NCBI GenBank assembly: GCA_964518475.1
Contig: CAZFGR010000001.1
Span: 288,001-352,000 of the forward strand
Direction of reading: 5' to 3'
Length of the DNA stretch: 64,000 bases
Source of the DNA: an uncultured Nitrososphaerota archaeon
GTDB taxonomy: Archaea > Asgardarchaeota > Njordarchaeia > Njordarchaeales > Njordarchaeaceae
Under the pieces are notes generated by a model that ran no database searches, was not told the DNA's origin, and saw only the letters and a program-made list of their open reading frames with translations. The position numbers and the translations under genes were made by a program. Each line of letters begins with the position of its first letter. The stretch's first letter is position 1. Shown here one piece after another: positions 18,762-61,451 of this stretch.

Positions 18762-18818
18762 TCAGCGCTACGGCAGGTTCATCATTGCTCTTTGCTCAGA
18801 GGTGGTACACATCATCAT
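18762..18818 (-). ncRNA. Box C/D sRNA A (16S helix 34, both strands)
   Basis: ATGATGA-TGTGTACCACCT-CTGA-GCAAAGAGCA-ATGATGA-ACCTGCCGTAGCG-CTGA; all four boxes canonical. Confidence 0.92.
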
Positions 18819-18922
18819 GTCATTAAATCACGCTAGACAAGAATAGAGAACCTTTTCCTTCCCTTAACCCAAAAGGCATGTTTATTATTTAAGTAATAGC
18901 ATGATGCTTTTAGCGGTTTTTA

Positions 18923-18975
18923 TCAGCCTACGGCAAGCTCTTCATCACGAGATCCGGAGGTGGTGCACTCATCAT
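18923..18975 (-). ncRNA. Box C/D sRNA B (paralog of A)
   Basis: ATGATGA-GTGCACCACCTC-CGGA-TCTCGTG-ATGAAGA-GCTTGCCGTAGG-CTGA; two 12-nt guides. Confidence 0.85.
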
Positions 18976-19006
18976 ATCACATAGCAATCATCATAGCATC
19001 GTCCTA

Positions 19007-19016
19007 TTTTATAAAA
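19007..19016 (-). promoter_or_regulatory. Candidate TATA box for sRNA B (palindromic TTTTATAAAA)
   Basis: About 30 nt upstream of the C box on the minus strand. Confidence 0.4.
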
Positions 19017-19175
19017 GGTTCTCCCTAGAGCACTAATATCCTTATATTAGAGATCTTCTTCCGCCGATATATTGATTAGTGCATGATAGCACAATCATAT
19101 AATGAGCTACACTGTAATGATGTGTTCAGTTGTAAGTGCTTATATGCATAGCAGTGGCTAATAAGTGATTGCTCT

Positions 19176-20078
19176 ATGAAGAAATTCTTCCTACAAATAT
19201 TTTTTAGAGAACAAGGATCTCGTGGCACGCTGCTCTACAAAGTGTTTTCTTATGATAGAGATTTACTAGCAGAGGGTCTTTATCCAGTAGGGTTAGATAA
19301 TATTAGTTATAATTACACTCCTAATTATCTAGAGTGGATTCACATCGTTAAGACCCCTTTTATTAATCCCGCAGGTGGGTGCGGAGCTACTAGCTATAAT
19401 AAATGTAAAAGATGCCCACTAGGATCACAAGAGGATCTAACAGTATGTGGTAGAGCACTTGTATATCTGCGTCCCTTTCCACATAAACGCGGAAAATTCC
19501 TGATTAAAGTAGGTGTGGGAGCAGACCTATTAAGACCTAGTTCCCAATCTTCTCCTTTCGCTATAATCTCCACCGATATAACCAGAAGAAAAGCCCTTTT
19601 TCTGGAAGAGTCTTTATCCAATATTTTTAATTTCGTAGTAAGGAATCCACGTGGAAGATTATTATGGTCTGATATTATTGCGAGAGGATTATGGAATGGA
19701 TTTGAGGAAGCTTCTTATCTCCTAGAGATATTACCGCAGATGTATGATAAAGTAAGAAATAACTACCCAGCAATTTACGCTTTATTAACCGATCCAGTAA
19801 TATTTATGCCCACTAAACATTTCTCCAGTCCTTTACCGACATGGATAGAGAAATTACCCATTAGAGATATAAGGAAATACGTTATTCGAGAACCAAATGC
19901 GATATACGGGGAAGTCGTAGCAAATCGGGGAGGATTACTAGTTATTGAGCATGAGGATGGTTTTTGGATATTCGAACCTAATGAACGGAGAATTTATGCC
20001 TTAGAGAAAATAGTTGGTCTTCAGGGAGAATCTACGATTTCCCACTTTGTTAAAAGAAAGATGATACTAAAGGAATAG
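19176..20078 (+). CDS. DUF2797-like protein with Cys cluster
   Basis: C....C..C, LVYL...IKVGVG, TRRKALFLEESL, GEVVANRGGLLVI. Confidence 0.6.
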   Translation: MKKFFLQIFFREQGSRGTLLYKVFSYDRDLLAEGLYPVGLDNISYNYTPNYLEWIHIVKTPFINPAGGCGATSYNKCKRCPLGSQEDLTVCGRALVYLRPFPHKRGKFLIKVGVGADLLRPSSQSSPFAIISTDITRRKALFLEESLSNIFNFVVRNPRGRLLWSDIIARGLWNGFEEASYLLEILPQMYDKVRNNYPAIYALLTDPVIFMPTKHFSSPLPTWIEKLPIRDIRKYVIREPNAIYGEVVANRGGLLVIEHEDGFWIFEPNERRIYALEKIVGLQGESTISHFVKRKMILKE

Positions 20079-20086
20079 GTGAGAGT

Positions 20087-20497
20087 ATGGTCTTATTTTA
20101 TGTGAGAAGGGAATTTCTTGATGCCTTGATTAAGGGAGAGAAAAAGGCAGAATTGCGCGTGGGAGAAAGCTGGATAAAAGTTGCTGAAAAAATTAGAACT
20201 GGAAGATTAAAACCTATAGCTATATTTAAGTGGAGAAATAGAGTTGTGGTAAGAGAGATTTACGATATCAAAGTTTACCCAAGTATTAGAAAAGCTCTAG
20301 CTAACGGCCGTTGGAGATTACTCGGCTTAAAAGCTAAAACATACCCAGAAGCCATCGATGAAGTTAGAAAATTGTATCACAAGGGTGCTAAAGGACATGC
20401 TGTCATGTTTTTTCTCCGAAAACCTAAGAGTTTCTCTAGAGAAGACGCTTTAGCCCTAGTGAAGCAAGTTGATGAAAATGCAGAATTAGAGAATTGA
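20087..20497 (+). CDS. ASCH/PUA-domain protein
   Basis: FLDALIKGEKKAELRV (GxKxxExR motif). Confidence 0.8.
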   Translation: MVLFYVRREFLDALIKGEKKAELRVGESWIKVAEKIRTGRLKPIAIFKWRNRVVVREIYDIKVYPSIRKALANGRWRLLGLKAKTYPEAIDEVRKLYHKGAKGHAVMFFLRKPKSFSREDALALVKQVDENAELEN

Positions 20498-20531
20498 AGT
20501 TAGTGATCTTTTATGCCATTCTCATTTCATA

Positions 20532-20589
20532 TCCGAGTGGTGCACGTTCAGCATCCGCGAAACGCGTCAGTGCAGGTTAGTCTCTTCAT
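20532..20589 (-). ncRNA. Box C/D sRNA C (16S helix 34, guide order swapped)
   Basis: ATGAAGA-GACTAACCTGCA-CTGA-CGCGTTTCGCGG(hairpin)-ATGCTGA-ACGTGCACCACT-CGGA; 12-nt guides. Confidence 0.75.
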
Positions 20590-59536: not shown

Positions 59537-59640
59537 GCCGGGGTCGCCTAGTCCGGACCAGGGCGCCGGTTAAAGATAGGCGAAACTTGAGATCCGGTGG
59601 CGATTACGCCTCGCGGGTTCAAATCCCGCCCCCGGCACCA
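59537..59640 (+). tRNA. tRNA-Ser(TGA) with 15-nt intron at position 30/31 (59570-59584), encoded CCA
   Basis: GCCGGGG/CCCCGGC acceptor, long variable arm GGCG/CGCC, T-loop TTCAAAT; BHB with CGCC/GGCG helix; spliced arm CCGGA-CTTGAGA-TCCGG. Confidence 0.9.
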
Positions 59641-59658: not shown

Positions 59659-59709
59659 ATGATGCGTACGGCCCCATCTGAGTTTCATGATGTAAGCTGG
59701 CATTACTGA
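59659..59709 (+). ncRNA. Box C/D sRNA G, directly downstream of tRNA-Ser
   Basis: ATGATGC-GTACGGCCCCAT-CTGA-GTTTC-ATGATGT-AAGCTGGCATTA-CTGA; two 12-nt guides. Confidence 0.8.
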
Positions 59710-61402: not shown

Positions 61403-61451
61403 ATGATGAAAAACCCCTTCTCTGATCATTGATGAGGGTTCCGAGTACTGA
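61403..61451 (+). ncRNA. Box C/D sRNA H (targets not identified)
   Basis: ATGATGA-AAAACCCCTTCT-CTGA-TCA-TTGATGA-GGGTTCCGAGTA-CTGA; two 12-nt guides. Confidence 0.88.

Follow-up and report, generated by a model that had tools for sequence, protein, structure and literature searches.

What do four short units that share the motif GTG(C/T)ACCAC do in the genome of an uncultured archaeon? They begin at positions 18762, 18923, 20532 and 48418 of a 64,000-nucleotide (nt) stretch of contig CAZFGR010000001.1 (assembly GCA_964518475.1, positions 288,001 to 352,000; the whole stretch is called the window here). We label them A, B, C and D in that order, and their genome G000. A first-pass annotation made from the letters alone had described them as box C/D small RNAs (sRNAs) tiling adjacent nucleotides of helix 34 (h34) of the 16S ribosomal RNA (rRNA). 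Our analysis supports reading A to D as genuine genes for archaeal box C/D sRNAs that form a small superfamily (A/B, C and D) directing methylation of h34 and adjoining nucleotides; we give this reading a probability of roughly 0.85. It builds on observed features, namely the gene anatomy, the complementarity to 16S rRNA, the conservation of the guide registers, the match to the cognate 16S rRNA in relatives and the presence of the protein machinery.

Four complete box C/D units carry a shared guide

The window contains five copies of GTGYACCAC where 0.09 would be expected by chance, and none of 100 shuffles reached five. Four of the five copies lie inside complete C-D'-C'-D units, which start exactly where the first-pass annotation had placed them and each contain the shared guide that it had reported. 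The fifth copy (GTGCACCAC at 51802) was considered as an sRNA and rejected, as it is without boxes and lies antisense within an open reading frame (ORF; 50888-51979). The guides of the four units measure 12-15 nt, the spacers 4-12 nt and the whole units 53-58 nt.

sRNA A (18762-18818, minus strand) reads ATGATGA / TGTGTACCACCT / CTGA / GCAAAGAGCA / ATGATGA / ACCTGCCGTAGCG / CTGA. Its C box (18818-18812) is followed by the D' guide UGUGUACCACCU (18811-18800), the D' box (18799-18796), a 10-nt spacer (18795-18786), the C' box (18785-18779), the D guide ACCUGCCGUAGCG (18778-18766) and the D box (18765-18762). sRNA B (18923-18975, minus strand) reads ATGATGA / GTGCACCACCTC / CGGA / TCTC / GTGATGA / AGAGCTTGCCGTAGG / CTGA, with the C box at 18975-18969, the D' guide GUGCACCACCUC at 18968-18957, the D' box CGGA at 18956-18953, the spacer at 18952-18949, the C' box at 18948-18942, the D guide at 18941-18927 and the D box at 18926-18923.

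sRNA C (20532-20589, minus strand; ATGAAGA / GACTAACCTGCA / CTGA / CGCGTTTCGCGG / ATGCTGA / ACGTGCACCACT / CGGA) consists of the C box AUGAAGA (20589-20583), the D' guide GACUAACCUGCA (20582-20571), the D' box (20570-20567), a 12-nt spacer (20566-20555), the C' box AUGCUGA (20554-20548), the D guide ACGUGCACCACU (20547-20536) and the D box CGGA (20535-20532). Its guide order is swapped relative to A and B, as had been annotated. sRNA D lies on the plus strand (48418-48474; ATGATGA / TAAAGCCCCGCCTTA / CTGA / TTTTTCAC / ATGATGA / TGTGCACCACCA / CTGA), with the C box at 48418-48424, the D' guide UAAAGCCCCGCCUUA at 48425-48439, the D' box at 48440-48443, an 8-nt spacer at 48444-48451, the C' box at 48452-48458, the D guide UGUGCACCACCA at 48459-48470 and the D box at 48471-48474.

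The terminal C (RUGAUGA) and D (CUGA) boxes are canonical in A, B and D and read AUGAAGA/CGGA in sRNA C. The first-pass annotation had proposed a genome-wide search for further members; scanning all 2.33 Mb of the assembly for the boxes gave about 60 good candidates (at most two box mismatches) and 82 loci at up to three mismatches, with A to D among them. The guides of these approximately 60 candidates are GC-rich although the genome has 38% GC. In the same set, A at position 5 of the C box is accompanied by G or C at position 2 of the D box in 12/18 cases, against 2/42 where the canonical U is present (Fisher p of about 1e-6). These counts cover position 5 of C and C' boxes (U to A) against position 2 of D and D' boxes (U to G or C) throughout G000, and the pattern suggests that the U.U pair of the kink-turn or kink-loop is replaced by A.G or A.C. 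The AUGAAGA/CGGA pair of sRNA C obeys this genome-wide covariation, and most C-type orthologues in the genus retain it, genome G001 having CAGA.

At Rfam gathering scores no small nucleolar RNA (snoRNA) family was found in the window, and A to D reach the gathering score of none of the archaeal sR families. Sub-threshold, full-length matches to archaeal sR models are present at all four loci (for sRNA A, sR11 and snoPyro_CD), the best of them, to sR11, scoring 24.6 bits where the cut-off is 39. Since Rfam families are guide-specific and the guides here are new within a known architecture, this outcome is expected.

The eight guides converge on two segments at helix 34

As a stand-in target we used the partial 16S rRNA of genome G005, the only 16S available from the same genus, which comes from a bin with 12% contamination. 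More guides of G000 match the rRNAs of G005 than those of more distant relatives. Target nucleotides were assigned by the N+5 rule, as those paired to the fifth guide base upstream of the D or D' box, with numbering counted from C1054.

The four GTG(C/U)ACCAC guides pair over 10-12 base pairs (bp) with GAGGUGGUGCACGG in the G005 16S, and their N+5 positions fall on three consecutive nucleotides: U1049 for the D' guide of B, G1050 for the D' guide of A and the D guide of D, and G1051 for the D guide of C. All four have at least 9 bp of complementarity and a Watson-Crick pair at N+5, and the D' guide of B forms 12/12 Watson-Crick pairs. On the 3' side, the predicted targets are A1191 (D guide of A), C1192 (D guide of B) and G1197 (D' guide of C). 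The staggered U-G-G series and the A, C and nearby G of the first-pass annotation are thereby recovered on a same-genus 16S.

sRNA D had been treated as lacking a second guide to the h34 region. Its D' guide pairs through positions p2-p11 (one G.U) with GAAGGUGGGGC, immediately 5' of the 3' strand of h34, which places N+5 at about G1182 and makes D a dual guide as well. All eight guides converge on 16S positions 1045-1057 and approximately 1179-1204, and the two targets of one RNA lie about 150 nt apart (772 vs 926 in the G005 16S), on both sides of h34.

The 16S sequences of G005 (L007) and G010 (L003), the two 16S genes available from the order, carry a compensatory change in h34, with GCACGG together with CAGUGUGCC. 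The usual form elsewhere, taken from comparison with L001 and L006, is GCAUGG together with CAGUAUGCC, so that U1056-A1204 has become C1056-G1204. The GUGCACC guides of G000 fit the C1056 form.

Guides and registers are conserved across the genus

Five other genomes of the genus match the region, with flanking coding DNA 66-72% identical and the sRNAs 78-93% identical. Among the six genus genomes, pairwise identity is 0.88-1.0 in the boxes and 0.83-0.94 in the guides, as compared with 0.25 in the spacer and 0.35-0.47 in the flanks. The registers are kept as well: the B type retains U1049 and C1192 in G000, G002, G004 and G001; the A type retains G1050 and A1191 in G000, G002 and G006; the C type retains G1051 and G1197 in 6/6 genomes; and the D type retains G1050 in G000, G004, G006 and G001. 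The G002 orthologue of sRNA A has identical guides and a different spacer. Substitutions within guides preserve pairing, with C or U opposite G1053 and, in the D' guide of D (orthologues in G004, G006 and G001), G to A opposite U1183 and C to U opposite a G of the following G run. This conservation among orthologues shows that guides and registers are under selection.

The h34 sRNA genes are also clustered in relatives, where the first-pass annotation had suggested looking for synteny. In G002, A, B and C lie within 340 bp of one another; in G003, C adjoins an A/B-like unit within about 100 nt; and three h34 sRNA genes of G006 share one contig within 18 kb.

The D'-C' spacer of sRNA C (20555-20566, minus strand) is capable of forming a hairpin, CGCG-UUU-CGCG, and that of the G002 orthologue (L013) reads CGC-AUAA-GCG. 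The remaining C-type orthologues have short stemless spacers and a canonical AUGAUGA C' box.

Relatives with their own 16S gene match both C-type guides

A sequence model of the C type (R1) matched 12/14 genomes of the order. In G010, which belongs to another family of the same order and has a 16S gene on a contig of at least 396 kb, the C-type RNA reads AGATGATGA / CTTCTGACCTGCT / CTGA / TTAT / GTGATGA / GCGTGCACCACT / CTGA. Its two guides form 9 and 10 Watson-Crick bp with the 16S of G010 and place N+5 on G1197 and G1051. In G020, from a different family, the 16S has GGAGGUGCAU in place of GGUGGUGCAC and the C-type guide has GAUGCACCUCCU in place of ACGUGCACCACU, a covariation between guide and target. 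In G010 and G020 alike, both C-type guides have at least 9 bp of complementarity to the cognate 16S and a Watson-Crick N+5 pair.

A half-model (R3) made of a box, the G1197 guide and a box was then run on 151 sampled genomes of the phylum. At E <= 0.05 it matched 52/151 genomes in many families, and inspection covered only the best loci. At least families f1-f3, f11 and f14 couple the G1197 guide to one for the h34 5' side, with weaker partners of this kind in f20 and f21. The dual h34 RNAs of f14 combine G1050 with G1197 in unpermuted order. Family f12 has full sRNAs in which the G1197 guide is joined to a different partner guide; a reading of these matches as half-size, single-guide C/D RNAs was rejected, as a normal C box and first guide lie upstream. 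Two matches in f9 have the look of coding sequence and are probably spurious. Beyond the genus, only fragments of the A/B type were found, in f3 and f4. In G008, h34 guides are recombined with unrelated partner guides, and a permuted A-like RNA is present in addition.

The methylation machinery is encoded in the same genome

Genes for fibrillarin and Nop5 stand side by side on the contig of the window, and two L7Ae-family genes are present in the genome. The genome further encodes at least eight full-length Ras-family GTPases and has two EAP30 (ESCRT-II) genes above cut-off, from which we infer an Asgard archaeon. Pfam searches for profilin and gelsolin gave no match anywhere, controls included, and are thus uninformative; the taxa listed for fibrillarin likewise gave no indication of the phylum. 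DNA of the window occurs in sediment and hydrothermal-vent metagenomes, and the runs listed for it include no RNA run.

A model for duplication, methylation and folding

In our model, each RNA together with L7Ae, Nop5 and fibrillarin would direct 2'-O-methylation opposite guide position 5. sRNA B would act on U1049 and C1192, A on G1050 and A1191, C on G1051 and G1197, and D on G1050 and approximately G1182, giving up to seven predicted 2'-O-methyl groups in and beside h34. Three of these would be adjacent, and G1050 would be served redundantly by A and D. In the same model, the family grew by local duplication, shifts of the register by one nucleotide, guide replacement and circular permutation.

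In the standard 16S structure, 1046-1057 pairs with approximately 1203-1211, and 1189-1200 with approximately 1058-1067. The two targeted segments are thus not mutual partners, and a dual guide would block both sub-stems of h34 and tether the ends of h35-h40 rather than align one duplex. The first-pass interpretation is partly supported: genuine h34-directed C/D sRNAs, the single-nucleotide stagger, A and B as neighbouring paralogues and the permutation of C all stand. The segments bound by the two guides of a single RNA lie on either side of the h35-h40 subdomain, about 150 nt from each other, so that the ribonucleoproteins probably also hold them together transiently during assembly of the 30S head. 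A chaperone role at h34 is plausible as the published model of Dennis et al. (2015) carried over to this helix.

Several points weigh against the h34 methylation reading. The assembly of G000 has no 16S gene in a search of the genome itself. On the G005 16S, an A.C mismatch adjoins the target nucleotide in the D guides of both A and B (expected CUACGG, G005 having CCACGG), and in the D' guide of C an A.C mismatch lies internally, at guide position 8. The searched genome and metagenome contigs contained no 16S with GGUUAGU as predicted. The 5'-side guides compete for one 12-nt site; since they cover the same nucleotides, the four RNAs would have to act in turn, and sequential visits would be needed to methylate three adjacent riboses fully. 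Expression of the RNAs, the 2'-O-methylation itself and the chaperone role are what we infer from the analysis.

If the h34 methylation reading holds, the cognate 16S would contain GGUGGUGCAC and ACGGCAGGU, with GAGGUGGUGCAC expected on the 5' side and GCUACGGCAGGU(U/C)AGU on the 3' side. Exact matches to GGGGCTACGGCAGGTTAGT and CYACGGCAGGTTAGTNTGCC, the 16S strings that the guides predict, were absent from the genome and metagenome contigs searched. Contigs of four DNA runs, the probable source sample included, placed on the G005 16S gave an h34 dominated by other organisms at a depth of about 1000, with variants below 10% unlisted.

Alternative explanations

The mismatches on the 3' side bear on the alternative that survives best, which we nevertheless consider unlikely. 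Here the 3'-side guides of the genus (the D guides of A and B and the D' guide of C) no longer methylate and serve as imperfect tethering arms, the RNAs methylating the 5' side and acting as chaperones. Every 3'-side guide does mismatch the same-genus 16S at one position, which in A and B adjoins the target nucleotide; the mismatched form ACUAACCUGC is identical in five species; and degraded partners of dual guides may still help folding (Lui et al., 2018, PMC6009581). However, the G005 16S may differ from that of other species at variable positions: the first mismatch position varies among archaea, G020 having CUACGG, and a cognate 16S reading GCUACGGCAGGUUAGU would pair perfectly with the 3'-side guides. 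The C-type guide of G005 itself differs, with a G at position 8 that pairs with C1200, and no A/B-type RNA was found in G005, a pattern that fits co-evolution of guide and target and not decay. In G010 and G020, the same 3'-side guide is fully complementary to the cognate 16S.

Somewhat less probable still is a separate descent of the four RNAs, in which unrelated scaffolds gained h34 guides independently and the conserved target constrained the guides. A, B, C and D have nothing in common beyond their boxes and guides, the likeness of their guides is forced by the target, and Dennis et al. (2015) name convergence among the possible origins; the unrelated partner guides of G008 point the same way. 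The lack of spacer similarity is uninformative, since C/D spacers diverge fast even between clear orthologues. Against independent origins, A and B lie 104 nt apart on the same strand and share both guides, each shifted by one nucleotide, and the close grouping of A, B and C in G002 and of C with an A/B-like unit in G003 argues likewise.

That the RNAs act on an RNA other than 16S (mRNA, tRNA or another), or are non-functional box-like sequences, is very improbable: sRNA D overlaps the 5' region of a gene called from 48452 or 48497 to 49333 and one further exact complement of the D' guide of C is present in the genome (contig C58), but all eight guides point to two 16S segments, only boxes and guides are conserved, the cognate 16S matches in G010 and G020, and no conserved alternative target was found.

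Genomic surroundings and further C/D sRNAs

A TATA-box-like element, TTTTATAAAA, was read from the sequence at 19007-19016 (minus strand). It precedes the C box of sRNA B by about 36 nt and may serve as promoter of B alone or of B and A jointly. Between this element and B, 12 nt upstream of the C box, stands a perfect extra ATGATGA (18988-18994, minus strand), and sub-threshold Rfam matches to sR1, sR17 and sR14 cover 18951-18998. The extra box may be a duplication remnant or an alternative 5' unit.

sRNA D directly precedes a protein gene, whose ORF gene callers begin inside the C' box (ATGATGATG at 48452, plus strand). The true start of this gene, which ends at 49333, looks like the ATG at 48497, with GGGGA before it. 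Two ORFs between the sRNA genes (19176-20497, plus strand; 300 and 136 amino acids) have no Pfam match on record and keep synteny with the sRNA cluster in the genus. UbiD-family and PhoH/KH genes lie nearby.

Two further C/D sRNAs lie on the minus strand, one in the window (57276-57329) and one outside it (contig C1 of G000, 356384-356437). Their D' guides, AGGAGGUGAUCU and AGAGGUGAUCCU, pair at adjacent nucleotides with the anti-Shine-Dalgarno region at the 16S 3' end, GGAUCACCUCCU, and their D guides share the core UCCUUUA, as reported for Pyrobaculum sR56/sR57. The two form a second register-shifted paralogue pair with long-range dual targets. A C/D sRNA candidate at 59659-59709 (plus strand) begins 21 nt after a tRNA gene (59537-59637), a gap that makes co-transcription possible. 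Both guides of a canonical C/D sRNA at 61403-61451 (plus strand) match the same-genus 23S rRNA, over 10 bp each.

Comparison with known guide systems

The units A to D have the features of archaeal box C/D sRNAs (Rfam sR families, snoPyro_CD RF00095; Omer, 2000; Dennis et al., 2015), with RUGAUGA and CUGA boxes in the same C-D'-C'-D order, guides of about 12 nt, a length of 50-60 nt, complementarity to rRNA by the N+5 rule and genes for L7Ae, Nop5 and fibrillarin in the genome. They are new members of a well-known guide class, for which hotspots, duplication with target drift, circular permutation and chaperone guides are already published. Methylation hotspots and the duplication, rearrangement and drift of sRNA genes were described by Dennis et al. 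(2015, PMC4644070), who list h3, h18 and h27 as 16S hotspots, with h34 not among them.

In Nanoarchaeum equitans, sR17 (h28) and sR15 (h30) are dual guides on opposite strands that were proposed as folding chaperones (PMC4644070, Fig. 5, Table 3). As in our system, the two guides of one sRNA address distant segments of one helix in the 3' major domain; unlike there, where one RNA serves each helix, four paralogues are aimed here at h34, and their segments are diagonal (lower 5', upper 3') instead of direct pairing partners. The Pyrobaculum superfamily of sR56, sR57, sR45 and sR12 (Lui et al., 2018, PMC6009581) has exactly the evolutionary pattern of A, B and C, but in another phylum and on other targets; here the shifts are of 1 nt and the three predicted sites are consecutive.

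Guides to the same 5' strand of h34 are known from Sulfolobus acidocaldarius sR6, Pyrobaculum calidifontis sR49, Methanopyrus sR120 and Ignicoccus sR310, which carry ..AUGCACCU.. (Dennis et al., 2015, Additional file 1). By our own reading of the published sequences, N+5 is the G1050 equivalent in all four. The partner guides of S. acidocaldarius sR6 and P. calidifontis sR49 read as pairing nearby downstream and not with the 3' strand of h34. In the sequence table of Dennis et al. (2015), we found one such RNA per species and no guide with N+5 on U1049 or G1051.

In yeast, h34 carries Um1269 (snR55) and Gm1271 (snR40), whose annealing sites overlap (PMC5464676), as well as Gm1428 (snR56) (PMC2794176). 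Given that yeast C1274 equals C1054 and A1427 equals A1196, U1269, G1271 and G1428 correspond to 1049, 1051 and 1197. The targets of B (U1049) and of both C guides (G1051 and G1197) coincide exactly with these sites. Human counterparts are Gm1328 and Gm1490, and two of the three coinciding yeast sites have listed human and plant counterparts. Yeast uses three separate snoRNAs, whereas here RNA C alone covers two of the sites; G1050, A1191 and C1192 are without a yeast counterpart. Shared target sites need not mean homologous RNAs, as guides to conserved targets can also arise by convergence.

Together with the phylum-wide G1197 guide, this coincidence could reflect inheritance or convergence on a critical helix. 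A stronger version, in which the h34-bridging dual guide is ancient in this probably Asgard phylum and the eukaryotic Um1269, Gm1271 and Gm1428 descend from it, single-guide snoRNAs having arisen by fission, strikes us as improbable, about on a par with a separate descent of the four RNAs.

No dedicated study of C/D sRNAs in this lineage was found in the open literature searched. Because the principles are already published (Dennis et al., 2015; Lui et al., 2018), the conceptual gain is modest. What the four sRNA genes provide is a map of specific modification sites, open to testing, in the decoding-site helix h34 of an uncultured and probably Asgard lineage, and h34 joins the helices with known helix-bridging dual guides. 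Since three of the predicted sites match h34 methylations of yeast, the map could inform which rRNA modifications predate eukaryotes.

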